Source: Reclinomonas americana ATCC 50394
Lineage: Eukaryota
Direction of reading: 5' to 3'
Length of the DNA stretch: 41,657 nucleotides
NCBI GenBank assembly: GCA_048213135.1
Contig: PS015249.1
Coordinates: forward strand, 101,867-143,523
The position numbers were made by a program, and so were the translations under genes. The notes beneath the pieces were generated by a model. It was not told the origin of the DNA. It saw nothing but the letters and a program-made list of their open reading frames with translations, and did no database searches. Positions 1,414 to 41,457 of the stretch are shown in pieces (position 1 is the stretch's first letter; each line of letters starts with the position of its first letter).

Positions 1414-2898
1414 ATGCGTGGCCCGGGGAGAGGCAACAGCGACGATGCTGCGGCTCGCATACCACTGACACGTTCGCGCGACGATGACGACGACGTGCCG
1501 GACGCACATGGTGGCGGCGAAGAGCTACGACGAATGGGCGCGCTGATTGGCAGTGCTCCCACTGCAGGAGGCGGCGCTCCCGTCAGCAGCTCGCCCATGG
1601 GCTCCAGTGGTGGTGGTGGTAGTGGAGGCGCAGGCGGCTCCCTGCTGCCCTCACACTCCTCGTCGTCTTCGTCGTCGGCGGCTGGTACGCGTGTTGGTCT
1701 TCGCTGTGCGCGCGCGCATGTTGGATCTGCGCGCCATCACTCACACGTGTGCGTGTGTGTGCACAGAGAGCCCATACATCAAGTACGCACCGGCGTTGTT
1801 TGCCGTTCTGAACGTGCTGTCCACCATCAGTCTCGTGTCGGTCAACAAGCTGCTCTTTATGACGCCCGATTGGAACTACCGTTGCGCCTCTCTCCCCTTC
1901 ACCCCTTCACCCCATTCTCCTCATCCCACTCACCCATGCACAGACGGCGTGCTCGTGCTGTCCCACTTGCTGGTGACGTGGCTGTACGCGATTCTCGCCG
2001 AGCGACTGGGCTTCTACGTGAACACACCGATTGATGTGCCGCAATGGAGGATCGCCCTTGACGCCTTCCTGCTCGACGTGTCGGTGCTGTCGATGAACTG
2101 GACGCTGGACAAGACCAACGTGTCGTTCTACCAGTTCACCAAGCTGCTGATCATCCCCGCTCAGGCCCTCCTGCAGTTCCTCTGGCTCAATGTGCGACCG
2201 ACGCTGCAAGGAGCGGTGGCGCTCGCCTTGCTCGGCGTGGGACTGGCACTGATCTTTGTCACCGAGTTTACGGTGACGGGCCTTGGGCTGCTGGGAGCCG
2301 TGGTGGCACTGGTGTCGACCACGGTCGGTCAGCAGGAGCTGCAGCAGACGCAGAATGTGTACAAGCTGGACTCGATTCACTACCTGCGGCATCTCAGCTT
2401 TTACCAGACCGCCATCATGCTCGTCTTTACGCTGCTGTCGGGCCAGCTGAATACCGATTTCATCGGCGTCGCCCTCTCGCAGGATGTGTTTGTGCGTTCA
2501 TCCGAGCGATGATGATTCTGCTGGGCGACTGCGCTCACTCTTCGCATCTACGCACAGGGTCTCTTCTTCCTGTCGTGCACGTTTGCGTTCTTTGTCAACC
2601 TGACCTCGGCGCTGGTCATTGGCAAGCTGACGGCACTCATGTTGCGTGCAGCGACAACAGCGAATTCGTGTGTGAAAGTTTTCGTCGATCCTCATTCGTG
2701 TGCTTGCATGCATGCAGGTACCAAGTGATTGGTCACGCCAAGACTGTGGCCCTGCTGGTCATCGGCACCGTGTTCTTCGGCACTGTCCTCGGCCCGCGCG
2801 GTATCACCGGCCTAATCATTGCCGCCGCCGGTGTCGTTTGGTACACCAAGCTCAAGCTGGAAAAGGCCGCCGATTACACACCACCGGCGAGGACATGA
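1414..2898 (+). CDS. Nucleotide-sugar / triose-phosphate transporter family (SLC35E-like)
   Basis: Exons 1414-1684, 1767-1880, 1944-2491, 2558-2640, 2718-2898. Motifs ISLVSVNKLLF, NVSFYQFTKLLIIP, FFVNLTSALVIGKLTALMYQVIGHAKT; many TM helices. Confidence 0.9.
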
Positions 2899-2987
2899 GC
2901 ACCCGTGCATAGGAGAGAGCCAGGCAGGCTCAGAGGAGGAAGAGTAAAAAGTCCGTCGTTTCGCACTTGTCTTGTCCCACCGATCTC

Positions 2988-3954
2988 ATGGCTTCCTCCT
3001 CGTCGAGCATTGACCACACTCGCGCCTCCGGCCTCGTGCTGGTCTCCGGCAGCAGCGAGAGTGGCATCTGGACGGTGACCATGAACCGTCCCGATGCCCT
3101 CAACGCCCTCAGCCTGGACCTCCTGCGCGACTTGGTGAGCACACACACTGCGAAGAGCAGAGAAACCAGTCTGTATCTCACTCCACACACATGCAGGCAG
3201 AGGCATTCCGCGCTCTGCGCAACGACGCCTCTGTCAAGGTGGTGATCTTCACGGGCGCCGGGCGCGCCTTCACCTCGGGCATTGATCTCACCGCCGCCAA
3301 GTCCGTTTTCCAAGGAGTTGAGTGGCGGGAGGAAATCTCCGCAGCCTGCATGCATGCATGTGTCTCACACACATTCACGTGCAGTCCAAGGACGGTGCTC
3401 CGGCCACAGTGGAGAACGATCCACTGGTGGAGATGGACCTGTGCCCATTCCCGATCATTGGCGCCATCAACGGCTTTGCGATCACCGGAGGCTTCGAGTT
3501 GGCGCTGGCGTGCGACTTCCTCATTGGCGCCCCCGAGGCCAAGTTCATGGACACGCACTGCAAGTTCGGCCTGATGCCATCGTGGGGCCTCTCGCAGCGG
3601 CTGGCGCGCGTGGTCGGCCCCAACGTGGCGCGCGAGATCTCGTTGACTGCGCGCCCAGTGTCGGCCGAGGAGGCGCTGTCCTGGGGCCTGCTGAACCGCG
3701 TGGTGGCGACGGCCGACGATCTGTTGCCGACGGCGCAGAAGCTGGCGCGTATGATTGCGGAGAATTATCAGCCGGTGGTGCGTGGCTACCGGGCGGTGCT
3801 GAACGAGGGCTTCTCCAAGACGCTGGCCGAGGGTCGGCGCCTGGAAAAGGAGCGCGCCTTTGCGTACTATGCCAAGATGCGACCGGAGCAGTTCGCCGCC
3901 ATGCAAAAGTTCATTGCTGCACGCTCCAGCCAGCAGCCGCGAGCCAAGCTGTGA
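2988..3954 (+). CDS. Enoyl-CoA hydratase/isomerase (crotonase family), peroxisomal
   Basis: Exons 2988-3134, 3197-3316, 3385-3954. Motifs TMNRPDALNAL, TGAGRAFTSGIDL, PIIGAINGFAITGGFELALACD, GLMPSWGLSQRL; C-terminal AKL is a PTS1. Confidence 0.93.
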
Positions 3955-4224: not shown

Positions 4225-4950
4225 TTAGTGGCCAGCGGCGCGCAGGTGCATGAGGTCGCGGAACATGGCCTGGATCTCCTCCTTGGACTTGTTCTTGATG
4301 AGCGACATCATCTTGGCGTGCGTTAGCGAGGTCAGATCGCTGATCGACAGGTAGTTGGCGGCCTCAATCAAGCGCAGCAGCAGCTCCATGTTGCAGGCGG
4401 GCTCGTTGACGAACTCGCGATCAAACTCGGAGATGGAGTCGTCAAAGTTGAACGACTCCTTGTACTGCAGCTCCAGTGGTCGCTTGATCTCCTCCATCGG
4501 GTGCACGGCGTGGTGGTTGATGAACTTGACCACCGCCTCTAGTGTCTTGGTGTGCACACGGCTGAGCTCCACGCGCTCAGAGCCATCGCCCTCAGCCTCA
4601 GCCTACAAACACAAAAATGAAAACGTCAGACAATACGGCGATACGAGTTGTGGTGGCGACAGCAGCAGCGCAACTCCCTGCATGTCGATGATGAACTGCG
4701 AGGCAATCGACAGCGCATGGCCTTCGCCATTGACGCCGCAGATAATGGAGCGGGCCACCTCAAACTCGACGCCCTCGAGCGACACGAGCGTAATGCGCGG
4801 CGCCGAGGCCGGATCAATCGGCTCATATGACACACGCGCGTGCATGGCCGCCGCCTTGGCCGCAATGGCCGGGTCAGTCGAGGCCGCTGCTGCCGCCGCC
4901 GCCGACGCCGCTGCAGGCGCTGCTGCCGATCCAGATGCTCCCTCAGACAT
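4225..4950 (-). CDS. Skp1-like protein (divergent, C-terminally truncated)
   Basis: Exons 4950-4675 and 4602-4225 (intron 4603-4674, GTTGCG...TAG). Motifs ITLVSLEGVEFEV, KTLEAVVKFINHH, SEFDREFV, LIEAANYLSI, IKNKSKEEIQAMF. Confidence 0.88.
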
Positions 4951-7490: not shown

Positions 7491-7830
7491 TGTCTCGACC
7501 GATCGCCGTCACACGCAGCGGTTGATTGAGCAGCTGCAGTTGTCCGTGTTCATCATCGGTGAGGCACAGCCGCTCTTCAACTTACAGGCGAACTCAACGC
7601 ACCTCCTGAATCGGCCGGAAGGCCAGCGGCGAGACGCTGTCGCTCTTCAGCTCGCAAGCATACTCGACCACTTCTTGAATCGGTCAGCGGGCAGGCAGCA
7701 GTCTGTCTGCCTTCGCCAGCGGTGCCTCGCCGCCTCCTGAATCGACCAGCATGTAACAGGCTGTCTGCCTTCGCCGTCCATGAGACGCAGTCGCTCTTCA
7801 GCTTTTCAACCTCGATCATCGGTCGAGACA
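7491..7830. repeat. 340-bp segment with 13-bp inverted ends and internal degenerate repeats
   Basis: tgtctcgaccgat (7491-7503) / atcggtcgagaca (7818-7830). Internal copies of gctcttca (x3), tgaatcg (x3) and ctgtctgccttcgcc (x2). Confidence 0.45.
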
Positions 7831-7863
7831 GTTGCTTGCTTGGTCGCATTCGTCTCCCCTTCG

Positions 7864-9170
7864 TCAGTCTGGCTCCTCGTCGGTCTCCATCACCGAGCCG
7901 GGGAGGGGCGACAGCAGCACCATCGGCGGAGGCGACAGTGTCGCGCGAGACGACGGCGACCGCTGCTGCTTGCCGAAGAAGCTCTCGGAAGCCGCTCGCG
8001 CCACTTGCATGTCGGCATCGGTCGGCGCGTGCAACACCCAGCTGTCGCCCCAGTGCGGATCACTGGCGGCGAGCAGCGCCGGTGGCGGTGGGTAGCAAGG
8101 ACTGGAGAACATGACGGGCGACAGCACCGGTCGCTTATCGCCGCCGCCGTCGTCGTCGTCGTCGTCAAATAGCGACGAGGCGCCCTCGATTACGGTCGGA
8201 GAGCGACGCAGCAACTCCACTGGTGGCTATAGGGAAATGTGAGGTGCGGGAAACGAGGACGAACAGGCGAGGGACGGGAAGTGGTCGACGAACCGGGTAT
8301 CGCACATCACGTGGCCGATCGCGCTCACACACCTCCCGTCGCAGTGCCACGGCCTCCTCATGTCGCTCTGCAGGCAACAGTGAGTGGGTGGGAAGGGGGG
8401 AGGAAGAAGCGCGTCACCCGGCGGCCACGCAACGACGCTCCCGATGCACTCGCATCATCTCCAACATGACGAGCTCTTCACCGTGCGCCAACACCGCCAG
8501 TGCACGCCGCTCCTCGTTCTGAAACTGTCGGATTCTGCAGCGGGACACGTCGGCGACGACTGGGCAAATCTCTAGCTCAACAAGACTTGAACGCAACTGC
8601 CGAGCCTCGCAACAATACGACACCTGTATTCATCATGCATAAGCACGAAATCGATACACATCAATAGAGGACACGCGCGACTATAGACTCACCCAGCACG
8701 GAATACACGTCAGGCGACAGCACACCAAGCACAGATCACTCGGCGTCTGCACCACGCAGCGGATCAATCTCTCTGCCTCATTCACCACAAGCTCTTCGTC
8801 GGGGGCAAACCTCGATCACCGGACACAATCCCGCGCAGCAAAACGAGCTCAGAAACTCCATCGACGCCGCTCTCCCCTGCTGCATGGTCAAATACCACAT
8901 CTGTCTCGCCCGCTCGCGCAGCACCTCCTCTGCGTCCGCCACCGCCTCTGCTGCAGCAGCGGCTGCTCGCGCGCCAACTGGCTCTTGTGCTACAGCGGCG
9001 ACTGCTGCAGCAGCGATGATAGGCGAGGAGGCGGAGGCGGGCGAGTCGGCGAGGCGAGAGGAGGAGGGAGAGGGACTGCGGTGGGACCTGCGCGCGGGCC
9101 AGTCGTCGTCCTCCGCATAGAGAGGAGAGGGGCGCACGCGGAGACTGTTGGCACGTGCTGCGGCAGCCAT
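7864..9170 (-). CDS. Hypothetical protein with a Cys-rich centre and Ser/Pro-rich termini
   Basis: Spliced reading MAAAARANS...FCCAGLCPVIE|TPSDLCLVCCRLTCIPCW|VSYCCEARQ...RHEEAVALRRE...|PPVELLRRSP...ETDEEPD*. Intron phases are compatible; no family recognised. Confidence 0.65.
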
Positions 9171-9664: not shown

Positions 9665-9667
9665 GAG

Positions 9668-9739
9668 CTCTCCCGCCGGGAATTGAACCCGGATCACCTG
9701 CGTGACAGGCAGATATCCTAACCATTAGACTACAGGAGA
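9668..9739 (-). tRNA. tRNA-Asp (GTC)
   Basis: TCTCCTG TA GTCTAATGGTTAGGAT A TCTGC CT-GTC-AC GCAGG TGAT CCGGG TTCAATT CCCGG CGGGAGA G: 72-nt cloverleaf with A and B boxes, followed by TTTTT. Confidence 0.96.
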
Positions 9740-11232: not shown

Positions 11233-11289
<57 letters not shown>

Positions 11290-11730
11290 TCTCCCTTCCC
11301 TCCGATCACAACTCCAATCGGCCTTGGTTTCTCTCAACTCCTCCTCCCTTTCCCCTCCCTCTCTCTCCCTCCCTCTCTCACGCAACTCCTTCCACGTCGT
11401 GGGCCCATACAACAGACTAACCACCGCATCCCACCACCAATCCTCCTCCTCCTCCTTTGCCTCCTCTCTCCTCCACTTCTTATACGCATGTCTTGACTCG
11501 CGCTCACACGCAACACCTCCTCCTCCTCCTCCACTCCCCGCGCTCTCTGCAATGAGGAACGGGCGCGAGAGGTGTGTGGAGACGGAGGAGGGAGGCGGTG
11601 TGCCCCCAAAGGGACTGCGATCGCGCGGAGCCACCAGTGGGATAATGGCGGCAGAGACAAGGAGAGAGGCGGCGATGAGGATGAGGATGTAGAGGGCGCG
11701 GAGGAGGTGGTGCGGAGCTATGCGAGGCAT
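10078..11730 (-). CDS. Type II membrane glycosyltransferase, GT31/Fringe-like; 3' part lost at a gap
   Basis: N-terminal signal-anchor LYILILIAASLLVSAAIIPLV. Exon 2 reads VAIVSHRFQDT...HHVVLSD...PDKRFYLILDDDVVL (DxD). Intron 10477-11386 (GTTGCG...CAG) is phase-compatible. Confidence 0.72.
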
Positions 11731-12633: not shown

Positions 12634-15004
12634 TTACTCCTCCTCCTCCTCCTCGCGCTTCTGGTGCTGCACGCGGTTCTGCTGGAACAGACGCGGTGGT
12701 GCGAGGCTCGAGCCGGCCGAAGCCTGTGGCGCGCGGTCATTCATGAGACGACCTCGTCAACAAGCAAGCATACCCCTCAAAAAAACAGCAACATACCAGT
12801 GGCACATCGTCATCGTCGTCAACATTCGGCACCGCACCGCGTGGCACGGCGGAGCTGAGCGCACTGGTCGACTTCTTCTTGCTGTGCGACAAATGAGAAT
12901 GAGTCCACCGCACAGCCAATCACCAAGAAACACAAGAGACGCACGCATTGTAGAGCACGCGAGCGGCGGCATCGCCACGGCGGTTGCTGCGAGCCTTGGA
13001 GACAGCCGCGCGCGGCGCGTCCGCGGCCATTTCAAGACCTGGTCGCGATGCGATGAGAACACAAAGGCACAAGTATCGCACGTCGAGAACGAGCTGCAAG
13101 TACCTTCGCTGCGTTCCGTCTCCATCTCACGCTCCAGCTCATCGTCGATCTCGCGTGAGGCGGCAAACACGTTGGAGAGCACATTCTGCTCCACGCCACG
13201 ACGACTGCCCGCACAGGGTAAGCAACAGAAACGAACAGATCATCACGCCGCTCCTCTCACAACAAGACGCAACGCTCCCACACTGCCCACGTAGTCCATC
13301 CACACGCGGGCATTCGCCTGCGCCTCGCGGTACTCGCCACGCATCGCCTGTATCAACAACAGCTATAAGTGACATGCTTCATCATCACTCTCTGCGCGTG
13401 GCGCACCATCTTGGCGGTCTGCTGCACCAGGTTGGCACCGAGCAGCGTCACATCGACGTCGCTCTCGGCCACCTCCTGCGCCTCGGTGACCTGCTGCACC
13501 TTGGTGATGGTGCGGCAGACTTGCGAGCCGTCGGGACGAGTGTAGGTGATTTGCGCTTGGAACGAGATCTGCTTGAGCGCCTTCAGTGCCTCCATGCACT
13601 CCGGCTTTGGCAGGTACTCGTACACGGTCTCGGTCTCCGACTGTGCACGATGATGGTCAGCGAAAGGGACATGACTGATAAATGAGTGGGCAGCGACAAC
13701 CGCAACAGTGACATTGCCGACATCGGCGCAGTAGACGTGGTCGGACTCGCTCGGCTCCTCGTTGAGCAGCGAGAATCCCTTGCGCAGAATCAGTCGCACT
13801 TGCACACGCGTGGCGACTACCGGAAGCGCGAGAATGTTGGCAAACTCGCGAATGAGTTGCAGCGGATCGACCACGTTGACCGAGCCGCCGGTGACGTCGG
13901 CCACGGAGCCCTGCGAAAAGAGGTTGTTGAGCAGCAATTGAGGGGAGAGAGGAGAAAGAGAGAGAGAGAGAGGCGCCTCACCAGCTTCTCGAGGCGGCAG
14001 TCGGTGCCGGTGATGGAGACGACGCTGACCGACACACCCTTTTGCTGTGCCAGCTGGCCGATCTGCTGGTAGAACTGATCGACGGCCTCGCGCTCCTCGT
14101 CGGTCTTCAGGTCCTCCAGGGAGCCGAGACCGACGTTGGCCAGGCCTGCAAGTGGGGGAGAAAAGGGGGAAGGGGGAAGGGGGAGGGAAATGGGGAAGAG
14201 GATAGGGGCAGAAGAGAAGAGGAGGGGGAAGGAAAGGGAGTGAGACTTGGAAAAATGTAACAGGAGTATTTGGGGGTTGAATGCTCACCGTCAGTGCACA
14301 GAATGACTTGCGAGCCGATCTGGTTGGCCATGGCCACGGCGGTCAGCAGGGCGGGTCCCAGGGCGGTTTGACCTGTGGGTCGAGGTAGAGGAGTGAGGAC
14401 GGAGAAGGAAAAGGTTAAGGGCGACGTTCTCAATCCAAGTTTTGGAGTCCGTGCCTGCTTGTTTCTCCCCTTCTCCCTCTCTCTGTCTCTCCGTCCTCTG
14501 CTCCCACACACAAACCTCCATCCTCCAGCTCATACAACCGACTGACCAGCGTCTCGTGCGTCTCGGCCACACTCTTGCCCATCAGCGTGTCGGCCACCTC
14601 CTCGCCACGCTCCACCAGCGAGTCAAAGTCGGAGAGAATGTCCTCAGGCAGCGATTGCGGGTCCTTGGAGCCGTCGCCGAGCAGATTGACGCCGTTGGAG
14701 AAGGTGACTGAAGAAGAAATGAGGACAACCGAGCACTGAAAAAGTCACGCCTTCCCATCAACAAACTCACCGAGACCAGCACGACGGCGCGGATGCTTGG
14801 CCACCATGTCCTCCACCTGCGACTCCACGGCCGCCTTGACGGCCTGCAGTCGGGAGACGTAGGTGACTTCACGGCTCTGACCGGGCATCCACTGCTCGCC
14901 GTCCTCGCGCAGGAACTCGGCGAATGTGGAGGTGGTGTCCTTGACGCCCTTGAGCTTGATCTTGCCGCGGACCTCGGTGGAGACGCACATGGAGCCGCTG
15001 GTGT
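12634..15004 (-). CDS. vWA / Sec23-trunk-like protein resembling the vWA region of circularly permuted Ras proteins; 5' end lost at a gap
   Basis: MIDAS DTSGSM, YVSRLQAVKAAV, GQTALGPALLTAV, VILCTDGLANVGLGSL, GVSVSVVSITG, ADVTGGSVNVVDP, FQAQITYTRPDG. About 11 exons, ending REEEEEE* at 12634. Confidence 0.8.
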
Positions 15005-15527: not shown

Positions 15528-18500
15528 ATGTCGTCGCAGAGCGCGCTCTTCTCGCTCTGCGCCAACAGCAGCGTAGGCCCACCCGCCAGCGCCACCGCAC
15601 CAATCGTAGTCCACACCGACTTCATCTCCTGTGTGCGCTTCTCGCCTCGACATGGTGTCCGAGTCATGGCTACTGCGCAGACCGCCGGAGTCATGCGACG
15701 CACAGCGAACCCGGTCTTTGTGTTTGTGTTGCGCAGTGGCGCAGGCGAGGCTGCAGAGGCTGAAGAGGAGGAGGAAGACGAGGAGGAGGAGGAGCACAGG
15801 AGAGAAGGCGATGATCATGCTGAGGCAAAGGAGGACGGTGATCCTGTGTATGAGGTGAGAGGGAGTGAGTGAGAGAGAGAGTGAGTGAGTGAGAAAGAGA
15901 GAGAGAGAGCAGAGACCTCGATGGATGATGATCACGTGACGATTTCTTCGATATTCAGCTCTCGGAGACGTTCCTGTCACATCGCAACAACATTCGCGAT
16001 CTGTGTTGGACTCGCGATGGACGGTGCTTGATCTCGGCCTCGGATGATGCGCGTGTCATGGTGTGGAATGTTACGCTGGAGTCGGAGAGACCCGGCGGGC
16101 GATTCCGATTGGTGCAGCAGACGCTGGTGCTGCCGTGGAAGGAGTTTGCGGAGGCGCGAGGCTCGATGATGTCGGTGGCTGCGTCGCCGTTTGATGATGA
16201 TTTGGTGGCCAGGTAGGAGGAGGAGACAATCGGAGCACGAGGGCACCTCTTTGCTCATGATCTGTGCTGTGCGTGCAGCGCGTCGAGGGATCGTTGCATC
16301 CGACTGTACAACCTGCGGCGGCATTCGAGTGGACCGCATTTGGTGGCGTCGCACGAGTATGCACATGAGATGGCGTGTACGGCTGTCGCGTGGTCTGCAG
16401 TGGAGGTCTGTTGCTTCCACACGTTGTACTCCTCTCGTATTGTCTGCGTATCAACTATGCCCTCGCAGAATGTTCTCCTGTCGGCTGGCGACGACGGCTT
16501 TGTGCGCATGTGGGACTGGCACAATCTCGACGGGCGGCCACTGCGAGAGCTGCGGCTACACACGGGACCTGTTACGTGCTTGGCGTGCGCCGAGTGTGGC
16601 TCACTCGCTGCCAGTGCGTCGGCCGATCGCACCATCCAACTCTTTGATGTGGAAACTGGCGAGACCATGGCCACGTACATTGGTCACCGCGACACGGTGG
16701 CCAGCATCACGTTTAGTCCCGCCGACGGTGCTCGACTGGCCTCGGTGTCGCCCGATCGCACACTCCGCGTGGTGCGCTCACTTCAATCACCTGCTTTTCT
16801 CCTCCGCTCTCTCACCAAAACGTGCGTGTTCCACAGTGGGACACCTCGTTCCCCTTTCAAATGACGCAAGTGCTGGAACACGGGCATCACAACGGCATCA
16901 ACGACGCCACGTGGTCGCGAGACGGCAGCACGCTCGCCACCGCCGGAGACGATCGTCATGTGGCCATTTGGCGGTGTCAGCGTTGCGTCACAACACCAGC
17001 AACAACTCGCCGCGCAGCGTGATTCAGCCACTCACTCCCCTTCGCAGCCCCGACCACACTGAACGTGTTCTGCCGCAACTCCTTCTCGGCCGAGATCTCC
17101 TGGCGTCCTCCGTCGCGCAAGAATCTCGACGCCGACGTGCGACTGGTGGTGGCGGGTCCGCTGGTCGACTTGCCCACCACCACTGCAGATGCCAACCGAC
17201 CGCCGTCACCCGCATCTCCTGCACGCTCGCCGTCGCCCATTGCCTCACCTACGGCAGCGGATGGCACATCGCCTGCGCTTCTTGCGCCACTGGTCTACGA
17301 TTGTGCTCGTGTCGGAGCGGAGCGGCTGGCGTTGGAAGCACTCGTTCCAAACACAACGTACACGGCGCTACTCTTTTCCATCCAGCCAGACGGACTGCCA
17401 CTGATGATTGGCCGCGCCGAGTTCACCACGCCGCCGGCCTTTGAGGACGATGCCGAGCTGCGCCAGCATTTCGAAGCCGTGCTGAATGCCGTCGGTCGGC
17501 GCTCACGGTCCCTTCTGCGACCGTCGCCGTGGGCATGCATGCCGTCACCATATCCACAAGGTATTGTGCCATGGGTGAAAAGAGAGAGACGGGAGAAGAG
17601 ATGTAGGATTCTCACGTTTGCAAATAGATGTTTATCGGGCGGCCGAGCGTGCACACCGAATGCTGGCCTCGTGGTCGCGACGGCTGGCCGAGCTGCACGA
17701 GCAAATGAAACCCCGCAGCAGCCGTGACTCGACCTCGGCCGCTCCACTGTGTGCCATGATTGAGCGCCACTTGCAGTACTTGCGCGATTTTCCGATGCAG
17801 GTGAGCTCGACAGCGTGCGCGAAGAGGTGAGCTGGTGTGGTGCTCACTCCGCTTCACGCGTACACAGGTGGCGTATCACCAGACGCACACCGATGTCGCA
17901 TTCTTGCGGCGCATGAACACGTATCTAGAGGAGCAGCTGATTCCGCCGTGCACCGAGTGGTGTGACACCCTGTCCAAGGCCGTCGAAGCCGATCGCCACA
18001 TGCAGGAGGCTTGCGCGAGCGAAGACGTGACGCAGGCGGCGCTGAGTGCCGACGCCAGATATCGCACCTCCAAGTGTGCGTCTCTCACCTCAAGCAACCT
18101 CCTATCAGTGTCTGTGCTTGGCTCATCACTGCAATGCATGCACACAGTGGTTCGGCGACTGGACATGTTGCAGTGGGAGAAGCCGTCGGTGCTGCTCGAG
18201 CCGTGGTGGGAGGACGCGGCTCGTAGGGGTGAGGAACGGCACCGACCGCTGGACGAGATCGATCGCGCACTGCGAGAGGTGGAGTACGACAACAAGGTGT
18301 TGCAGAAGCGGCGCGAGCGGCTGGCGAATGATCGAGACGCGCAGCTCAAGATCAAGGCTGAAGCCGAGCGGCGATTGCAGATGCTGCGAATCGAGGAGCA
18401 GGTGTGTTGTGCAAGAGCTCCCCGTCCCCACTCAACTCCCAGTCACAACTGACACACACTGTGCGCGTGTAGGCACTGGACGTGATGACTGGAACGCTGG

Positions 18501-22700: not shown

Positions 22701-22955
22701 AGTAGGTTGAGGAGCAGCAGGTTGAGGAGCAGCCGCAGTGGGAGGCGCCTGCTGCGGCTGCTGTTGTTGGTATGCTGGGTGCCGTTGTGCACTGCGGAGG
22801 AGGAGAGGGTGAGGGTGATGCTGCAAGGGAGGGAGGCAGACAGGCGAGCACAACTTTTGCAACTGCGACTGGTATTCGCGCAAGGTGACCTCGTGCTGCG
22901 TGAACCACGAGAAGATCTGCTCGTTGGTGCGGCGCGGCAAGTCGTTTTCGCTGAT
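19655..22955 (-). CDS. Q/P-rich protein resembling Mediator subunit MED15 (5' end missing)
   Basis: Long Q/P tract, FSLQMLERA helix, and C-terminal LRLLVPYTY...SPSLAAIVGLWDSIL resembling the MED15 C-domain (LRLLVPxxYP...SLxxIAxxWD). Assignment is by recalled motif only. Confidence 0.55.
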
Positions 22956-27453: not shown

Positions 27454-30400
27454 TTACATGCACACGGGAACGTGGCTGTGAAGGAAATCCCAGTCCCTCA
27501 AGTCGCGTATTACATCGTCACCGGGCAGTGTGGCATACGACTGTGTGCAGACGATGATGATGATGATGGTAAGTACGTGGCGACAAAGGGGTACAGCGTG
27601 GAAGGAGAATGGACGCTCACCGTCGCCTGTCCTCGCAGCTTCTTACCGGCGAGATCTGCCGGTGTGCGCAGCATGCGAGCCTCATGTGCGGCCACCAGCG
27701 CGTCAAACTGCACACACAAGTCAGTGAAACACAGTTCGTTGCACACACGGCTCACCCCAAGATACGACTCACCTCCGTCTCAAACGCCTCCATAATCGGC
27801 CGCTGCGACTCGAGGATTGTGACGCGCACAAACTCCACCGACGTGTCGGGGTGCGTCTGGAAGTATTCGACGATGGTGGCCAGAATGACATGAGCGGATC
27901 TGTGCACAACGAAAAAAAGCATGAGCGACAATCATCGCAGTACGGTGTGGTGGTGGCGGGCGAGCACGGGAGTACGCAACACTGCAGGCGGGCACGAGTA
28001 CACGCCCGTGGCCAAGGCCGGCATGGCAACGCTGCACAGGTTGTACTCGTCGGCCGTCGCCATGATGGAGAGCACGGCCGCTGACAGTGTCTCCTCGTGA
28101 GCTCGCTCGCCGGCTTCGGGCGGCGATCGGAAGTCAGGTGGAACCACGTGGAACACAAACGCTGACGGCAGCGCGCCGGCACTCGTCACCACCACGTCGC
28201 CAGCCGCCAAGCATCGCCGATCGCCAATAATTGCCGCGCACTCGGCGGCCAGGCCTGCACCAGCACGACGCACGAGCTCCGACGGCAGACCCGCCGTCAT
28301 GTCCAGTGTCAAGTTGGCGGGGCACACCAGACCCTCGGCGTCCTCTGCCAGCAGGTCACCCGTGCGAATCTGCAGCAAGTGAATCAGAAAGTCGTGTGAT
28401 TGGCATACGGCGGTGCACAGCAGCACAGTACCTCAATAACACGACCGCAGCGAGTGCGCAGTTGTCGCGAGAGACCACGAAGTGAGGCCGCGTCAGCTGC
28501 GCAGAGACAAAAGGAATAAGCGTACTCTCTACGAAGAACTCATTCAATAGCAAGTAATCACGAACCAGCCACATAGCCCGCATGCACGTACTCTACCACC
28601 TGATCCATCCGCGCGGGCTCTGCCGCCGCCGCCGCCGCCGTCTCTTCCACCGCACGCTGGTGAGCAGGTGTGCTGCTCAGTAACCTCTTGAGGTCGGCCT
28701 TCCAGTGCATGTCCTGCATCGAGCCCCCCGGCAAACAAGTGAGGATTGGAGACGGAAACAAAGGATGTGCACCAGCGCTGTGCTCACCTTGCCAGCATGG
28801 GCGAGGACGCGAGCCATCTCCTCGGCCACACGCGACACGCGCAGCCACTGCTGCTGCGGGTCGAGCATCTCCAGCAATCCGCCGGCATCCATCTCTGCAA
28901 CACACACACGCGTGAGTCCACCGCCACAGCACATTCGCCTTTCTCCCCAACACACAAACCGTGCTTCTTGAGCGCGCGTGCTTCCTGTGGGAACACCGGC
29001 TGGCACGCACGAAGCAGCACCGATGGCTCCCACAGCTTGGAGTCCGCCGTGGGAGTGCGGCCGCGTCCGTCGAGCGCCGCCTCCAACATGCTCCACAGGA
29101 ACGGAGAGAGGACGGGCACGCCGGCGGGCAGCGGACGACCCTCGCACATGAGCTTGGCGAGGATGCGACCGAGAGCCACATCCGAGTCCGCCGACTCGCG
29201 CGCACCCACATCGACAGTATGTGTGTTGAACAGGACGCAGCGGCCGCCTTCGCCCGCGGTGAGCATCTTGGATTCGGCGAGGCCACGGCCAAGAACCTGT
29301 GAGGTATGTGTGAGTGCGTGATTGAGCGCATGTGTGGCGAAGAACGAAAGGCAAGCACGGTAGACGCGCAACATTTGACACATAGGCGTCCGGCATGTCG
29401 GCGCGCAGCAGCTTGTCTGCGCTCATTCTCTTGACCTCGATCAGCAATTCAGGCGTGGTCTGCACGTCGCTCTGCGACGAAGCACGCATGAGTCACTCAA
29501 GCAAGACACTGGCGAGTGAGACATTCTGCTGCCTCACCGATGCAGGCATCATCATCTCCTCCTGCGCGTCGTGAAGACGCTCGAGCTCCAGCACTCGCCG
29601 CTCCGCGTACTGCGCCGGCGACAGATTGGGGTGCAGCGCAAAGTACGCATGCTGCGCCGTGGCACTCTCGTGTGACATGAGGATCTCGGGGCGTGGAGTG
29701 CGGCACGCGGCGGTGAGCACATCGATGCCGAGCGGTTGCGTGACGCGGCATGCGTTGTCGCACGCACGGCGGGCGGTGGTCGCCAGCTGGAACAGGTATG
29801 ACTGGAAGGGAGAAGGTGGAAGGGAAAGTGAGTGAATAAAGGATATGTGGGAAGGGAAGGGTGTGGGAGGGAAAGGTGGCAAGGAGAGAGTGAAGGTGAG
29901 GGTTGATGGGAGAGGGCGAAAGGGAAGTGGAATGGAGCGGGTGGAAAAGGAAGCGTGCAAGGGGCAGGGCGGAAAAGAAAGGCAGAGAAGGGAAGTGAAG
30001 GGTGACGGTGGACGGCAAGAGAAGAACGGGAAAGGGTGGAAGGAGGAAGGTGGCAAGGAGAGAGTGAAGGTGAGGGTTGATGGGAAGGGAAAGGGTACAG
30101 CGTGGAAGAGCAAAGGTGTAAGGGGCAGGGCGGAACAGAAAGGCAGAAGAGAGTGAGGTTGGGAGTCTTCAGATTTCTGGTCGGACTCACCACCACGCTG
30201 CCACGCGACAAGCTGGGAGGCAGATCACCGCGCATCTCCAACAGACTGCACGCCAGCGAGAAGCGGAAGTAGCGAGTGGCCACCCACACCGGATCCGAGT
30301 TGACAGTCACCGAGGAGTAGTCGCACGCCGGCGGCATGTACACCAGGTTGGCCAGATTGCGCGCCATGGTGAGTTCGAGCACCAATTGCGCAATGCAGTC

Positions 30401-32858
30401 CGAGGCGCGCTCCATCGCCACTGTCATCAATGTGCCACGCTGTGGCGACTCGTACAACAATTGTTCGTCCGTGGCCTGCTCGACGAGCGCGGAGTGTGAG
30501 CAAGGAGAAGGAAAGACACATCAAATAGGAGTGTACGGGAGACGCAACACAGCGCATCAAGGCCTCGACAACGAGCACCCGCTCCTCCTCCTGTTCCGTG
30601 ATGCTCTCCGCCACACTCTCGTCGTCGTCGAGCAGCGCATCCTTGACAGACATCGAGGAAGCGGCGGCGCCGTTTCCGAGCGCCAGCATAAGCACAGTGG
30701 TGCCGGAGGCATCGGGTGTGGCCAGGTTGGCCAGCAGGACCTCCTCGGCATCGTCAAAGTCGTCCTCCAGCAGCCAGAGGAGAGCCAGCGGGTAGAACGC
30801 GGCCATTTGGTGGAGCGGAGTCGTTCCGTTTTCTGCAAGAGGCAATTGATTGTTGAGTGTCACATGAAGAGACAATTCAGAATGCAGAGCATACGCACCA
30901 CTGACGGTGAGCGCCTCGGCGGGAACCACGGTCAGCGCACGGCGCAGGAGCGCGCCGTTGCCACGGAACGCGAGTTGTGACAGCAGGTTGGCCGAGAAGA
31001 ACATGTCGGGATTGAAATTGCCACCGAATCCGCGGAAGCCACCACCGCCACCGCCGTTACCACCACCACCACCGCCACCACCACGCCAGTCGTCGGTTCG
31101 TCTCCTCTTGTACGGTCCCGACTCGTCGTCGTCACCGCCACTGCCATCGCCGCCGCCGCTGCCGTCTTCGTCGTCGTCGTGCGCATCGTCCGAGTCTCCG
31201 GAATCGATGCCGCGCTTGCCGCCGCCAAGAATGGCGTCGGTGCTGGCCGGCACCACGTACACGCGATGCGGCAGCGAGAGGGAGCCATCGGCGGCACCCA
31301 GCACCACGTCACATGCGCCAGGTGATTCGAGGAGCACGCACACCAGCACCGACTCCTCGGCGAGACCGAGCCCCTGCGAACCGGGGGGCAGATAGAACGG
31401 GCCGGCCACGACGCGCGCCACTTGTGGACTCGCCGGCACGTTGTAGGCGGCGGAGCTGAAAGCGTGCGCTCGATCCACATCGTGGAAGCGACGGCGACTC
31501 GCGTCGCTCACTCGTTGCGTGAACTGCAGCCACACTGGCGACTGCTGGTTCGGCGGCGGCGACAGCATATACTCGCTGGCCGTCGGCGTCAGCGCAAACA
31601 CCGAGGCACTTCGCTCGCCAGAGACGTTCAAGTGCTGGAACGAAGGCATGAGCGGCGGGCGCGCGGGTTGCCGAACTGCGAATGGGGAGGGAAGATTGTG
31701 AGGCGGCGAAGAAAGACGGGGAGGCAAGTGAAGGAGACGCAACGAGGTGTGGACACGTCAGTCAAGCGCAGGCGCACGAGAAAGTCGCCGAGGCGCAGCG
31801 TGCGCACGCCCATTTTCTCGTCCTCGGCCGCTTGCTCTGCGTCCTCCTCCTCCTCCTCTTCATCCTCGTCCTGGCCGTCCACCGACATGGACGGCTTGCC
31901 AGCAAAGTGCCACTCACGCGACCGCGTGTACGTGACGTCAATGGCCGAGGCCACACACAGGCGCAAGCCGGTGCAGGAGGGGCTCAGTGGGGCGCTGAGC
32001 AGGACCGTCGATGATGATGATGATGANNNNNNNNNNNNNNNNNNNNNNNNNNNNNNNNNNNNNNNNNNNNNNNNNNNNNNNNNNNNNNNNNNNNNNNNNN
32101 NNNNNNNNNNNNNNNNNNNNNNNNNNNNNNNNNNNNNNNNNNNNNNNNNNNNNNNNNNNNNNNNNNNNNNNNNNNNNNNNNNNNNNNNNNNNNNNNNNNN
32201 NNNNNNNNNNNNNNNNNNNNNNNNNNNNNNNNNNNNNNNNNNNNNNNNNNNNNNNNNNNNNNNNNNNNNNNNNNNNNNNNNNNNNNNNNNNNNNNNNNNN
32301 NNNNNNNNNNNNNNNNNNNNNNNNNNNNNNNNNNNNNNNNNNNNNNNNNNNNNNNNNNNNNNNNNNNNNNNNNNNNNNNNNNNNNNNNNNNNNNNNNNNN
32401 NNNNNNNNNNNNNNNNNNNNNNNNNNNNNNNNNNNNNNNNNNNNNNNNNNNNNNNNNNNNNNNNNNNNNNNNNNNNNNNNNNNNNNNNNNNNNNNNNNNN
32501 NNNNNNNNNNNNNNNNNNNNNNNNNNNNNNNNNNNNNNNNNNNNNNNNNNNNNNNNNNNNNNNNNNNNNNNNNNNNNNNNNNNNNNNNNNNNNNNNNTGG
32601 CGAGGAGGCGGCGGCGGCGGCGGAGTACAGCAGTTGTGGGGTGACCGGCAAGAGGAAGCCGGCGACGGGGGCGTTGGTAGGGAGCTAATGAGGGGGAAGG
32701 GGAAGGGGGAAGGGGTGGGTGACGGGAGGGGGGAAAGGGGAGGGGGAAGGGGAGGGAGGATGTAAGGAGAAGTAAAGATGCAGGGAACTAGAAGGAGGGG
32801 GAAAGGGAGGATCGTAATGCTTCGCACGAAGCGCAACTCGCTCTTTGCTCTCGCTCAT
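27454..32858 (-). CDS. Large multidomain protein: beta-rich N-region, NLS, Gly-rich region, ankyrin repeats, HECT-N-lobe-like stretch, C-terminal macrodomain
   Basis: About 15 phase-compatible exons spanning one gap. Ankyrin-like ENGTTPLHQMA and DASGTTVLMLAL. Macrodomain IRTGDLLAEDAEGLVCPAN...GDVVVTSAGAL...VFHVVPP...SVAMPALATGVYSCP. Stop TAA at 27454; the first exon is tentative. Confidence 0.78.
29790..30190. repeat. Pyrimidine-rich intron with an internal duplication (period about 160-175 bp)
   Basis: aaggtggcaaggagagagtgaaggtgagggttgatggga (x2) and aaggggcagggcggaa-agaaaggcaga (x2). Confidence 0.75.
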
Positions 32859-36165: not shown

Positions 36166-38926
36166 TCAGTGAATCGGCGACACTGGCAGTCGGAAGGAGT
36201 CCACCGTGCTGCGCGCGGGAGCAGCGTGTGTGTCAGCAACTGCATCACGGCGAAACAGGAATCACTTGCACTTGCACACACACACACCTGCCGGGACTCT
36301 TCTCCGGCACACCGCACGAGGCGGTCTCCCCCGGCAATGTGCTGCCGTCGTACCCATTGTGCGCCTACTCATGCCATGTCACACTCCAAGCCTTCCGACA
36401 ACGGACACACACGCACAAACACTGACCTCCACCAAGATTACGGGCGAGTCGGGATCCGTGTTGCCGGTGAACAGAATGGCGCGTGGCGATGATCCAATGT
36501 CATACGAGGCGTGCATCATGGTCGTGGAGCAGCTGGCCGATCAAGTCAGGTGCATCACTGCACAACACTCTTTTCCCCACGTTATACATACCTCGACAAT
36601 CCACCCGTCTTCTCCCGCGACGCCAGCGAGAACCACTCCTCGGCCGGCGCAAACGTGTAGTCCAACACATACTTGGTCGAGGTCGGTCGCTGGTCACACA
36701 CGGCCGGCGATGCTTGCTGCATGTCGAGATGAGCACAATATTCCACAAAACCAGGAGAGTGCATTTCTCTCCCACCTTGTTGTGGTCCTCGGAGTTCCAG
36801 CAGAAGCCATCGTCGTTCACCAGCAAACTGCAGCAGGTTGAGACCGTAATTCACACATTCACGCGCTCACAAGATCGCCTCACATGTACGGCACAGGCGT
36901 GCCGGCCACCGTCAGTGCCGTGCGCGCCAGGTGCACCGAAGAACCGACGCTGACCGCCACTGGCGCATCGACCACCGTCAACGGCGGACCAAGCGAGAGC
37001 GTGGCCACATGCAGCGTGTGACTCGCGTCGGTAAAGGCCACCAGCGCGCGCTGCTTGACGGCATCTGTTCACCACCGTGAGTGCACACACCCACCCGACC
37101 CTTCTATTCAAAAAAACAAACCAGCCGCCGTCACGCTCGCCGACAGCACCGAGCCCGACGCCGCAATGCATTGCACGCCACCGGTCACCGACAGCGAGTA
37201 CGTCTCCCACACGATGCGGATGGGTACGGCGCCGACCGCGCACGCCGGCGTGGATACCAGCGCCACAATGCCGCCCTCCGCAGTGACATCGGCTGCCAGC
37301 AGAGCGTTCCAGCCGGTGCCCGTCAGCGCCCCGCACCGCCGCACTTGCGTGTCGTTGTGCGAGGCCATGCTGAACTCCACAAAGCAAAAGTTGACATTAG
37401 ACGAGAGCAGCAGTGCCGTGTGGTAACTCGACGGTGCCGGATCCTCCACCACCATCGCCGCCATCGTGTCGTACATGCCAGTGAGTGGCAGTGGTGCCGT
37501 GGCATCAATAGACACTATGTGTATACAGGCGGCGGATCAGCACACGTGCGCACACCTGCCCCTTCTCCGCCTCACAACGCAACGAGTGCCCGGCCACGTG
37601 GCGATTCCGCGCTGCACCTCAAAGCCACTGGCGTGTCGGCACACCAAGGCCACATCGGCCGACGAGGTGGCGGCATTGGAGCCGAGCAGCAGGGGGAATG
37701 GAGCGGAGCAGTCGGCGGCCACCGAGTGGTGCAGTCCGTACTGCGAGAGCGGACTCGAGTACGTCTGGAACATGGCCTGTGTGTGGGAGAGGAGAGGGCT
37801 GTTAGCACTGCCTCCTACTCAAAAAAACCAGCACTCCCACGCAACTGGATCAATGTTAATGGCAAAACGCAGGCCGCTCGGATGCAACAGCGACGGGTCC
37901 TTCATGTACGCCCGCGACACATTCAAGACTTTCGGCGCGCGTGGTGAGCCAACACCACCATGACAGCATTGTCGCCATGACAACCACGCAACTGGACGAC
38001 TCATCCGCCGGCTCCCACACCTGGAACGGGTACGTGACATTGGCGAACTTGCCCCACTTGACATCGCGGAGGAGCGTCACAAACATCGACGGATCCAGCG
38101 GTGCCGTCGGCAGATTCAAAACCTTTGCAGAGAGGATGATGAGCAAGCTGGAGAGGCAGCAGTATGAGCTGGTGAGGGGAGGTAGCACACCTGGAATCGA
38201 TCGTATCCCTTGGCAGCATCGTCGCTAAAGGCGGCCTCCCACGCATTCCCCGGATAGATCCACGTAGAAACGTACGGGCGATAAGCCTGCGCAAAGCACG
38301 AGGCCGCCGCCGATCCCGATCCATCCATGACTAGCTCCACATCCGCAAACGAGCTCGGCTTGCGCGCCCTTGCCTGCGTAAAAGCATCGACAAAGCGCTG
38401 CATTTCCGCGCGAAAGGCCACCGCGTTGGAGGACGACGTCGAGCACACGTCACCGAGGCCTGTGTACTTGAAGCAGGCGGCCAGGGTCAACTTCGTGGCT
38501 CCTCCTCCGAGGTACGGCTGCATGTCCTGAGAGAAGAGGTAGGCGACGAGCTCGTCGGAGGTGTTGTAGCGTTGTGTGAGAGGAGTCGGCGTGTTGTGGA
38601 TGAGCACAAAGCAGGTGGTGCGAGGGGAGAGGCCTTGATGCGCACAGGAGGCTGCGTCGTTGACGAAATGAAGATCCGCCTGTGATTGAGTTGTGTGTGT
38701 GAGTCCTCTTTCTCTCTCTGTGTGTGTGCGTGCGTGTGCGTGTGACCTTGAGGTATCGTGCTCCCTTGATGAGCGCCTGTGGCCACTCGCGCAAGTCATC
38801 CCATGAGTGGATTTGGAAGTCGATTTGAGGAAAACGCAGTGGCGAACTCGACACCACCACGACGACACCCGTGAGTGACACGAGAAGTGCGACGAGGAGG
38901 AGAAGAACACGTGATCTCTGCTTCAT
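36166..38926 (-). CDS. Secreted PLC-like phosphodiesterase (TIM-barrel) protein with an uncharacterised C-terminal region
   Basis: Signal peptide MKQRSRVLLLLVALLVSL. QIHSWDDL...ALIKGARYLKADLH...CFVLIHN follows the H...GxRxxExD...H pattern of the superfamily. About 12 phase-compatible exons ending PIH*. Confidence 0.6.
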
Positions 38927-39016
38927 GAGCCACCAAAATCAGGAGGGTTTTACAGCGAGGGCTCGCCGGGACGAGAGGAGGACGACGAGAAGGGAGATGG
39001 GAAGAGCGAGTGTCGA

Positions 39017-41457
39017 TCATGACCGCGACGCAGAGGATTGTGCGCCAGCGCCCGACACGGCTCCGGCCAGGTCGCGAAGATTGGGCGTGCTCTCCATGGG
39101 AGGCGGGGCGCGCCAGGCGCGGCGACCGCCGCCATTGCCGTTTCCACTGCCACTGCCGCCTTCGCCGCCGTCGCCACTGTTGCGATCGCGCCAGTTGCCG
39201 CCACCACCACCCCGATTGCGATTGTAACCGCCACCGCGGCCTCCACCACCACCACCGTAGCCACCACCATTACCACCCGCACCCCGTGAGCCATCTTCAC
39301 CACCGTAGCCACCACCACCACGGCCACCACCGCGACCGCCACCACCGCGTCTTGGGCGACCCGGCGCACCACGACCAAACGTCTCCATGTTGGTCGCTCG
39401 CTGCTCACGCATCGACACGCGGCCATCGGTCTTTGTTTCGCAGCTGCGAGGAGGAGGACAAGTAAGCGAGTGAGTGAGAGACAGGAAGGAGATGCGTAAA
39501 AAAGGGGNNNNNNNNNNNNNNNNNNNNNNNNNNNNNNNNNNNNNNNNNNNNNNNNNNNNNNNNNNNNNNNNNNNNNNNNNNNNNNNNNNNNNNNNNNNNN
39601 NNNNNNNNNNNNNNNNNNNNNNNNNNNNNNNNNNNNNNNNNNNNNNNNNNNNNNNNNNNNNNNNNNNNNNNNNNNNNNNNNNNNNNNNNNNNNNNNNNNN
39701 NNNNNNNNNNNNNNNNNNNNNNNNNNNNNNNNNNNNNNNNNNNNNNNNNNNNNNNNNNNNNNNNNNNNNNNNNNNNNNNNNNNNNNNNNNNNNNNNNNNN
39801 NNNNNNNNNNNNNNNNNNNNNNNNNNNNNNNNNNNNNNNNNNNNNNNNNCCGACCTCAGCGTGTCGAAAAAGTCCTCCTTCTTGTACGCCGCTGGTGACT
39901 TTTCCGGTGCTCCCTCCGACACTGTGGTCTTGGCGGCAAACTCCTCCAACAACTTATCCTTGTCGAGCCGTGCATTGGCCGACGCAAAGTCAAAGTCCTC
40001 CTTGAACTTTTCCCGTTCGGCGGCCATGGCTGCAGGATCGCCTCGTGGACCACCACCGCGCCCGGCACCACCACCAGCACCACCACCTCCGCGATGACCA
40101 CCACCACCGCGACCTCCACGGTGATACTGCTGCTGGCCCGAGGGCGAGCCGCCGGCCGATTGTGGTCGTCCACCACCACCACGACCACCACGATGTGAGC
40201 GTTCGCCACCGGGTGGTGATTGGGCGCTAGACGGGGGCATCGAGGGCGGGGGCTGCGTGTGGGGGAAAGGGTGTGAGGAAGGGGAAGGATTCGGGGGGAA
40301 GGGAGATGAAGGAGACGCAACAGCCGAGGTGATGATTGCGGGGTCGACTGGCGGTTGCGGTGGTGGTGGTGCACCACTCGGGACCTCCAGGTCTGCGGAG
40401 GGGGAGGGGCAGGTGAGAAGAGGGGTAAAGGGAAAGGGGAAGGGGAAAGAGAGAAGGAGAGGGAGAGAAGGAGAGGAGGTGAGACAAGACAAGCAACACC
40501 GTGACAACACGAACTGCCCTCTCTCTCTCTCTCACTAGTCCCTCCTCCGAGAACCAAGGGAAGGGAAGAGGAAGAGGAGAGGAAGGGGAAGAACGACAAA
40601 GAGACAAAGGAGGAGAGGATGGAGATGAAGAGGAAGGAGGAGGAGCGGCGAGGAGGAAGAGGAAACATGGTGACAACACGAACTGCCGACGGCGTCGCCT
40701 GATCCCTCCCTCTCTCTCACTCGGGGAGGAGGAAGAGGAGAGGAAGCGGAAGAACGACAAGGAGAGGGAGGAGGAGGAGTAGGAGATGAGAAGAGGATGG
40801 AGGAAGAAGACAAGGAGACAAGACGAGCAATACACGGCGTCGCTTGATCCCTGCCACCCTCCCTCTCTCACTCACTCGGGGAGGAGGAAGAGGAGAAAAA
40901 GGGAAAGAACAACAAGGAGAGGGAGGAGGAGGAGAAGGGGAGGAAAGAAGAAGAAGGAGGAGGTGAGATAAGACGAACAACACACGAACTGAAGACGGTC
41001 TCTCCAACTTCTCTCTCCAAGAACGGGGCAAAGGAAAGGGCAGGAGAGGAAGAAGAACAACAGGGAGCACAATGGGGAGGAGAGTAACAAGAAGGAGGAG
41101 AGACAAAACGAGCTACACACGAACTGAAGATGCCGTCGCTTGATCCCTGCCACCCTCTCACTCATCCCTCCGAGAAGGGGGAAGGAGAAAGGGGAGGAAG
41201 AGGAAGAACAAGGAGGAGAGACAAGACGAGCAACACACGAACTGAAGACGGCGTCGCTCGATCCCTGCCACCCTCTCACTCATCCCTCCGAGAAGGGGGA
41301 AGGAGAAAGGGGAGGAGAGGAAGAAGAAGAACAAAGGGAGGAAGGAGGAGAGGAGGGGAGGAAGAGGAAGGAGGAGAAAGAACAAGGAAAGTGGTGAGAC
41401 AAGACGAGCAACACACGATCTGCCTCCTCTCTCCCGTCTCCCTTCTCCTTCACCTCA

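Follow-up and report, generated by a model that had tools for sequence, protein, structure and literature searches.

A GTTGCG class of 5' splice sites confined to exon ends other than G in a 41.7-kb stretch of Reclinomonas americana DNA, and a possible one-base shift in its recognition

How is a 5' splice site recognised when the exon before it does not end in G? The question is raised by a stretch of DNA from Reclinomonas americana ATCC 50394 (GCA_048213135.1, contig PS015249.1, 101,867-143,523 of the forward strand), which we call the window, meaning the whole of the 41,657 bases analysed; its G+C content is about 58%, it includes seven N gaps amounting to 1,630 N, and it is packed densely with intron-rich genes. 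A preliminary description, made from the letters alone, had placed 22 intron starts of the form GTTGCG or GTTGAGT, always after an exon base other than G, and had suggested that they are read in a shifted or bulged register, or by a variant U1 or U6 or a dedicated factor. In our gene models the introns of the window begin in two ways: with donors that follow G (class A) and with donors of the form GTTG[CA]G (class B), the latter only after A, C or T (written H below). We propose, with doubt and conviction about equally balanced, that these are two kinds of 5' splice site in ordinary U2-type introns, and that class B is read with U1 in a register shifted by +1.

Gene models were made with an independent Viterbi exon/intron finder that was trained on its own output for two rounds and whose signal scores ignore every exon position; because no exon base was scored, an association with the last exon base (position -1) cannot have been built into the models. 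A first gene finder, which used codon usage and GT/AG only, was too noisy and was discarded. The pattern-aware run, which rewards GTNNG and GTTG[ACT]G donors, output 74 introns, 21 of which start with GTTG[CA]G, all after A (6), C (7) or T (8). After G there are no GTTG[CA]G donors and 41 others, against 21 GTTG[CA]G donors and 12 others after A, C or T (Fisher's exact test, P = 2.3e-10); when stricter criteria reduce the set to 55 introns, the corresponding figures are 0 and 31 after G and 17 and 7 after A, C or T (P = 5e-9). The donor class of the preliminary description is therefore real in these models, which recover 20 of its 22 positions, and so is its restriction to exon ends other than G.

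A second run was donor-neutral: all GTs were scored 0, and the first 12 nucleotides (nt) were kept out of the training of the intron content model. Thirteen of the resulting 79 introns start with GTTGCG, all after bases other than G, with none among the 36 donors that follow G. Only 46 of the 4,928 GT dinucleotides in the window belong to a GTTGCG, and at least 13 such starts among 79 would be expected by chance with a probability of 6e-13. The motif as such is barely enriched (46 occurrences on both strands; mean of 35.8 in dinucleotide shuffles, with at least 46 in 4 of 100 shuffles); the enrichment is at intron starts. These numbers bear on whether the class is an artefact of modelling, donors having been put on GTTGCG by eye or by scoring while splicing really takes place elsewhere. 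The pattern-aware score does reward the motif, and for seven of the 21 donors the neutral run prefers in-frame GTs 3-30 nt away (given with each site below), such that frame does not secure these seven, the grounds for which are the motif, homology or intron length. Nonetheless, 13 donors were chosen with no donor information, none of the models scored an exon base, and homologues fix three of the sites, and we consider an artefact of this kind very improbable.

Judged by protein alignment, those three class-B donors, at 1881, 2641 and 13706, are placed to the residue. Two of them lie in a TPT/SLC35E3-like transporter gene (1414-2898, +). The intron c/GTTGCGC at 1881..1943 (+, 63 nt, phase 1; donor-neutral model; here and below a slash marks the exon-intron boundary) interrupts a protein whose alignments with homologues P0001 and P0002 are ungapped at the junction, and the split codon c/ac encodes a His that is kept in both. 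We rejected a cut after the G, which would leave the G on the exon and start the intron with UU: at 1881 it would lose this conserved His or shift the frame. The alignment to the two best relatives is also ungapped across t/GTTGCGT at 2641..2717 (+, 77 nt, phase 2; donor-neutral model), where an alternative donor at 2668 would add nine residues and lower the score with three of three homologues (660, 611 and 563, against 677, 625 and 580). The third site is t/GTTGCGG at 13641..13706 (-, 66 nt, phase 0) in a vWA-like gene (15103-12634, -): alignments with P0271 and P0272 (Mastigamoeba balamuthi) run ungapped through the junction (..GNVT/SETE..), and the neutral alternative at 13712 would drop two aligned residues. 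A scan of metagenome contigs with the TPT alignment returned only two loci, 29% identical and too distant for use.

The two classes have different intron sides. In class A (n = 41) the +3 position is G in 22, A in 10, T in 6 and C in 3, and +4 is A in 14, T in 13, C in 12 and G in 2; +5 is G in 39 of 41 (33 of 36 in the neutral run) and +6 is T in 23. In class B (n = 21) G1, U2, U3, G4 and G6 are invariant by the definition of the class, +5 is C in 20 and A in one, and +7 is T in 15. The preliminary description had likewise put C at +5, G at +6 and mostly T at +7, and its summary of the motif as GTGCGT or GTGAGT plus one T fits: one class member is GTTGAGT, and the three solid donors of other form that follow a base other than G are all GTGCGT. 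These three, which lack the extra T, are t/GTGCGTT at 2492..2557 (+, 66 nt; here P0002 aligns ungapped and P0001 with a gap of one residue), c/GTGCGTC at 12882..12944 (-, 63 nt) and t/GTGCGTC at 18076..18147 (+, 72 nt), the last two found by both models. A fourth that had been counted with them, at 36883, appears in one earlier model only. At 36828-36883 (-) the TGA stop of the gene at 38523-36880 overlaps a possible donor t/GTGAGG, and the models differ between ending the gene there and splicing to 36166. The other donors after bases other than G are a class-B-like a/GTTGTGC at 22792..22854 (-, 63 nt; pattern-aware model only, the neutral run choosing 22851), t/GTTATTG at 28440 and seven low-confidence ones beside gaps or repeats. 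Donors that follow G are thus free at +3 and +4, whereas those that do not require a long and nearly perfect match on the intron side, either GTTGCG(T) or GTGCGT, and usually the T-inserted form (21 times, against 3 for GTGCGT).

Beyond the donor, the classes share their features. Median intron length is 66 nt in class A and 68.5 nt in class B (Mann-Whitney P = 0.16), and 19 of the 21 class-B introns fall within 63-81 nt. The commonest branch-like motif is CTCAC in both, with the branch A a median of 17.5 nt (class A) and 17 nt (class B) from the 3' splice site. The acceptor is CAG in 36 of 41 class-A and 17 of 21 class-B introns, YAG accounting for 20 of the 21 in class B, and among the 20 class-B introns of at most 160 nt the last 48 nt contain CTNAY in 18 and CTCAC in 11. 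All 21 class-B introns are modelled as GT-AG, 13 of them forced by frame in the neutral model. Because length, branch motif and acceptor are shared, class-B introns are, by their sequence, ordinary GT-AG introns of the U2 type whose 5' end is of a second kind, rather than copies of a single element. U12-type introns have the donor RTATCCTT and the branch motif TCCTTRAY 10-15 nt from the 3' end. Class B is like them in having a long, nearly invariant donor motif on the intron side and no need of an exon-end G; we rejected this assignment, since the class-B donor is GTTGCGT rather than RTATCCTT, and the branch motif is the CTCAC of class A, at the same distance and with the same acceptor.

Introns 31743 and 40321, in different genes, have identical first 15 nt (GTTGCGTCTCCTTCA); other class-B pairs share the motif only. 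Such a pair would suit the idea that class-B introns are copies of a mobile family (introners) with its own conserved 5' end, as would the fixed 7-nt start and the narrow range of lengths. However, in an all-against-all blastn comparison of the 74 introns that pair is the whole of the class-B similarity, the remaining matches being of low complexity or in the repeat region near 41 kb; the lengths of class-A introns are distributed in the same way, and insertion would not avoid an exon-end G unless it were targeted. We give this idea very little credence.

The exon sides of the two classes bear on how each is aligned with U1. In class B, G is absent from -1 (0 of 21, where intron phase and coding composition would predict 7.4; P = 9e-5). 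In class A it is absent from -2 (A 19, T 12, C 10, G 0; 7.8 expected, P = 9e-5; 0 of 36 in the neutral run), as at donors 3135 (+), 6238 (-) and 17801 (+). The class-A exclusion is far stricter than the weak preference for A that is usual at -2. Position -2 of class B is unconstrained (G in 7 of 21, 7.6 expected), and differs from -2 of class A (Fisher P = 2e-4) but not from -3 of class A (P = 0.78). This pattern of exclusions is newly seen here, and the exon sides agree only when class B is slid by one base. Written on one line, class A is H-G-G-U-(G)-(C)-G-U and class B is H-G-U-U-G-C-G-U; the third place is G or U, and cleavage is before the first GU.

This one-base offset of the exon-side exclusion favours a shifted over a bulged register, which the preliminary description had offered together. 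In a bulged register U1, and later U6, would pair in the normal frame (+1G with C8, +2U with A7), one U (+2 or +3) would be flipped out, and GCGU would pair as it does in GUGCGU. The motif does read as GTGCGT plus one T; a bulge at +2/+3 is, according to Tan et al. (2016; PMC4856993), a validated human register, predicted at 68 of 201,541 sites; the pairs (G:C and U:A) that +5G and +6U of class A make with the U6 ACAGA box would be kept; and a bulged duplex is optimal for a G-preceded test sequence with the Mastigamoeba-type U1 described below. But a bulge would leave the exon side in its normal frame and so predicts that class B excludes G from -2 as class A does, whereas G is found there in 7 of 21. 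It would moreover cost energy with no gain over GUGCGU, which is seven times rarer after bases other than G, and in the best duplexes of the real donors +1G pairs with U1 nucleotide 8 in just 3 of 21. We therefore think a bulge unlikely; of the two registers put forward, it is the shift that fits the exon side.

The shifted register would work as follows. Class A, about 55-60% of introns, would be anchored on the exon, as H-G/G-U-N-N-G, with an obligatory G at the exon end and, on the intron side, little constraint apart from +5G. Class B, which makes up about 25-30%, would be anchored on the intron, as H/G-U-U-G-C-G-U, and would amount to the full class-A consensus G/GUGCGU read one nucleotide out of step. 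Its +1G would take the slot of the last exon G, opposite C9 of U1; +2U would lie opposite C8 as a mismatch; and UGCGU (+3 to +7) would pair with the next five U1 bases. Cleavage would then occur before the only available GU, one base upstream of the position given by the U1 register, and would presumably be fixed at the handover to U5 and U6. The partner U1 would most likely have a G opposite the conserved C, as the candidate U1 of M. balamuthi does, rather than the standard ACUUAC. What we say of U1, U5 and U6 throughout we infer from the DNA. A register displaced by one base and standing in for the exon-end G is partly supported, and is the best available reading.

Several points weigh against the shifted register, beginning with predicted pairing energies. 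With the standard U1 5' end as printed in PMC4856993 (AUACUUACCUG), donors after G pair at -7.4 kcal/mol in the normal register and class B at a mean of -1.1 kcal/mol with no consistent register. Poor normal-register pairing, by which shifted sites are recognised, is thus found with standard U1. However, since class B pairs with it in no register, a canonical U1 in a shifted register is insufficient; that part of the +1 proposal is unsupported in its original form, while the offset of the exon-side G profile is in keeping with the shift itself. The near-invariant C, at +5 in class B and at +4 in the three donors with GTGCGT, would call for a G in the RNA that pairs with it. We therefore also considered a Mastigamoeba-type U1, our own construct of the hexamer ACGUAC in the standard flanks, from which the U1 of the host may differ. 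With it the class-B mean is -4.75 kcal/mol, and in the best duplex +1G lies opposite nucleotide 9 of U1 for 11 of 21 donors; +1G is unpaired in 7 and paired with nucleotide 8 in 3. H/GUGCGU outdoes H/GUUGCGU with the standard (-1.4 against +0.5 kcal/mol) and with the Mastigamoeba-type U1 (-7.3 against -4.2), so the seven-fold preference for the T-inserted form is left unexplained by the energy of pairing with U1. The +5G is normally read by U6 too, and with C there instead, U6 would need a bulge or lose the pair. We know of no pairing rule that forbids a G opposite U10 of U1, which leaves without explanation the very exclusion that speaks for the shift. The missing -1 G could instead reflect relaxed selection, the long motif not being needed where -1 is G. 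Lastly, the motif-rewarding score biases the class proportions of the pattern-aware model, which the neutral run answers for just 13 donors; every junction comes from sequence models; and the sample is a single 41.7-kb window.

The conserved C can also be read as the mark of a dedicated or altered U1 (or of a second variant) fully complementary to GUUGCGU, ACGCAAC-like and one base longer than ACUUAC, with class A recognised through GGU and U6 at +5G, or by a second, standard U1. This would account for the near-invariance of seven positions, among them G4, C5 and G6, with which standard U1 cannot pair, and for the T-inserted form being preferred over GUGCGU. In Amoebozoa, U1 has changed its recognition sequence at least twice, to AACAAAC (for GUUUGUU) in Entamoeba and to ACGUAC in M. 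balamuthi, and both standard and modified variants are reported from Physarum (10.1101/2022.06.08.495308). Two window genes have amoebozoan nearest named homologues, in Stygamoeba regulata (39% identity) and M. balamuthi (63%, one exon). On the other hand, a -1G would pair with such a U1, so its absence needs an extra assumption; G exclusion at -2 of class A is left unaccounted for; and in that register a G would lie opposite the +5G of class A. As for the -1G, work on yeast Prp28 reportedly suggests that a duplex lengthened at -1 by a G:C pair, its eighth, might be too stable. We regard an altered U1 as a rather unlikely explanation. It also seems doubtful that two U1-type modes exist side by side, one of standard length for HG/GUNNG and one that is one base longer and GC-rich for GUUGCGU, with U2, branch site and acceptor shared. 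Among Rfam matches in the window (E <= 1) we found no spliceosomal small nuclear RNA, just low-complexity, sub-threshold matches besides one transfer RNA (tRNA). This is a tRNA-Asp (anticodon GTC) at 9667-9739 (-), between two protein-coding genes, the sole match at gathering score.

Apart from the two transporter introns, the donor-neutral model supports class-B introns in several other genes. The vWA-like gene has a second one, c/GTTGCGT at 13205..13273 (-, 69 nt, phase 2), with flanks poorly conserved in homologues. Three lie close together on the minus strand: c/GTTGCGT at 21491..21554 (64 nt, phase 2), t/GTTGCGT at 20325..20392 (68 nt, phase 1) and, between them, a/GTTGCGT at 20702..21209, whose modelled 508 nt is a length outlier with an uncertain acceptor. 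In the minus-strand gene at 32026-27510, which encodes a Macro domain at the protein end, are c/GTTGCGT at 31676..31743 (68 nt, phase 1) and t/GTTGCGT at 30476..30548 (73 nt, phase 0). One gene has three consecutive class-B introns, all on the minus strand: a/GTTGCGT at 37929..37992 (64 nt, phase 1, with the acceptor AAG rather than YAG), a/GTTGCGT at 37777..37845 (69 nt, phase 0) and c/GTTGCGT at 37515..37583 (69 nt, phase 1). A homologue search with its exon 37123-37512 (-) returned no relatives, so these three are placed without homology support. An LSM14/Scd6-like gene contributes t/GTTGCGT at 40253..40321 (-, 69 nt). A tentative a/GTTGCGC at 32685..32837 (-) adjoins the N gap 32027-32597 and comes from a gene fragment of 36 residues that scores 17 in the neutral model.

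The sites that the neutral run moved include the variant a/GTTGAGT at 3317..3384 (+, 68 nt, phase 0) of an enoyl-CoA hydratase-like (crotonase) gene, where it picks the in-frame 3305; the junction is in a loop of variable length in PDB crotonase alignments, which do not decide the placement. In a Skp1-like gene, a/GTTGCGC at 4603..4674 (-, 72 nt, phase 0) has the neutral alternative 4644; read-through ends at an in-frame TAG, and donor 4644 would make an intron of 42 nt, below the pattern-aware minimum of 54 nt. The downstream exon matches Skp1 from residue 38, which is consistent with the junction without being a strict test, and exon 1 has no real PDB match. The neutral run moves c/GTTGCGT at 8368..8433 (-, 66 nt, phase 1) 3 nt upstream to the in-frame 8436, and c/GTTGCGT at 16982..17047 (+, 66 nt, phase 1), in a WD40 gene, to the in-frame 16976. 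Homologue and protein-atlas searches with the WD40 exon returned generic WD40 proteins and clusters only, of no use for 16982. Two more are in the gene with the Macro domain: t/GTTGCGC at 29297..29372 (-, 76 nt, phase 0; neutral choice the in-frame 29381) and, inside the domain, t/GTTGCGT at 27900..27980 (-, 81 nt, phase 2; neutral alternative 27995). Against PDB macro domains, the exon upstream of 27980 matches as far as ..GVYSCP, two residues before its end, and the downstream exon matches the next helix; these alignments are consistent with the junction but are not a strict test of it. For the donor described at 8597, either of two candidates is GTTGCG after a base other than G; the pattern-aware model prefers the adjacent t/GTTGCGA at 8613-8560 (-, 54 nt) to a/GTTGCGT at 8597-8535 (-, 63 nt), both are in frame, neither has a clear branch motif, and the neutral run models other donors (8739 and 8674). 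At 11381..11386 (-) the motif is present as a/GTTGCGT, and the putative intron enters the N gap 11019-11221, which kept it out of the models. Finally, c/GTTGAGTT at 7598 (-), with CTCAC and YAG 65 nt on, lies between a gene ending at 7864 and the start, at 7386, of a PARG-like gene; it may be the start of an intron in the 5' untranslated region (UTR) with a donor of class-B type.

Gene identities rest on comparison of single exons with Pfam or PDB. Besides the transporter gene (1414-2898), the genes recognised in this way are the enoyl-CoA hydratase-like gene (2988-3954, +), the Skp1-like gene (4950-4225, -), the PARG-like gene (7386-5836, -), the WD40 gene (15528-19607, +), the gene ending in the Macro domain and the LSM14/Scd6-like gene (41656-39851, -), the last identified by a Pfam LSM14 match in its first exon. 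One window gene differs from its M. balamuthi counterpart by many substitutions and gaps; the 63% identity is over one exon of 54 residues. Judged by the two nearest named homologues, the window would probably be amoebozoan, on slender evidence, and it is not from M. balamuthi. Only 89 nt separate the stop of the transporter gene (end at 2898) from the ATG of the enoyl-CoA hydratase-like gene (2988) on the same strand, such that the first gene must form its 3' end, and the second have its promoter or 5' UTR, within that space. In the presumed long intron region of the LSM14/Scd6-like gene is a 118-nt tandem repeat (41074-41329; 2.2 copies, 92% matches), because of which the modelled introns 41548, 41242 and 40683 are unreliable. 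Inspected by eye, the model at 25455-27337 (+) predicts a protein of 580 residues in which a stretch resembling a homeodomain (..RVWFNNTR..) occurs together with long runs of poly-Q and of poly-P.

If class B is indeed read out of step, its main interest lies in numbers. In mammals, shifted and bulged registers are known as exceptions, few and heterogeneous, and how the cleavage site is fixed and handed over to U5 and U6 is still argued by way of mutants and reporter genes; a quarter of introns with one fixed out-of-step motif, in a complete either/or relation with the exon-end G, would be a large natural sample for such questions. The co-evolution of U1 and donors reported in Amoebozoa would be extended from a changed consensus to two co-existing ones, and two U1 modes, if they did exist, would give the major spliceosome a second major 5' splice-site code of natural origin. 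In practical terms, about one donor in four in this lineage will be put in the wrong place by gene finders trained on only one donor matrix; our own neutral model moved seven of 21 by 3-30 nt. In a literature search we met with no use of GTTGCG(T) or GUUGCG(U) as a splice motif: the text matches listed, one of them on HERV-K RNA and Toll-like receptors, were judged by title and the start of the abstract; words of the GUUAAGU type gave unrelated sequence matches only, and a search on protist introns gave nothing specific.

Roca and Krainer are said to have reported in 2009 that human 5' splice sites can be read by U1 in a shifted register. By the published account, shifted and bulged registers are proven in human cells, where validated non-canonical registers make up 1.5% of 201,541 sites (Tan et al., 2016; PMC4856993). 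Class B resembles these human sites in that a GU is followed by the consensus displaced by one base, there is no exon-end G, and cleavage stays at the GU. The human sites, as described there, are rare and varied in sequence, whereas in the window, where we infer the register, one heptamer accounts for about 28% of donors (21 of 74) and about 64% of those after bases other than G (21 of 33). A second likeness is to the Archamoebae, among which M. balamuthi has a U1 candidate ACGUAC and donors that prefer GUGCGC, and Entamoeba a U1 AACAAAC and donors GUUUGUU (Roy and Bowser, 10.1101/2022.06.08.495308). Donors in the window share with them the GC-rich GUGCG type with C at +4, and the Archamoebae offer precedents both for a U1 that has a G facing this C and for a donor of 7 nt in which +3 is U. 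Their donors are described as one consensus per species, and the passages of that article covered here mention neither a dependence on -1 nor a GUUGCG class; the main text of the M. balamuthi genome paper, whose supplement may hold more, gives intron number and size and no donor classes (PMC8136499). The closest parallel in logic is the division, as published, of 5' splice sites into two major classes, AG//GUNNN (U5-type) and NN//GURAG (U6-type) (PMC11732430; also PMC9803359, PMC10581693, PMC11842720). There, as here, the strengths of the exon and intron sides are anti-correlated, and a class with an exon G stands beside a class with a long intron motif. The published classes, as presented in those papers, overlap and share one register, whereas in our sample the exclusion is complete (0 of 41); and, unlike NN//GURAG and AG//GUNNN, the intron-side class of the window is GUUGCGU, with C at +5 in 20 of 21 and the G at +6, while it is the exon-anchored class that keeps +5G, in 39 of 41.

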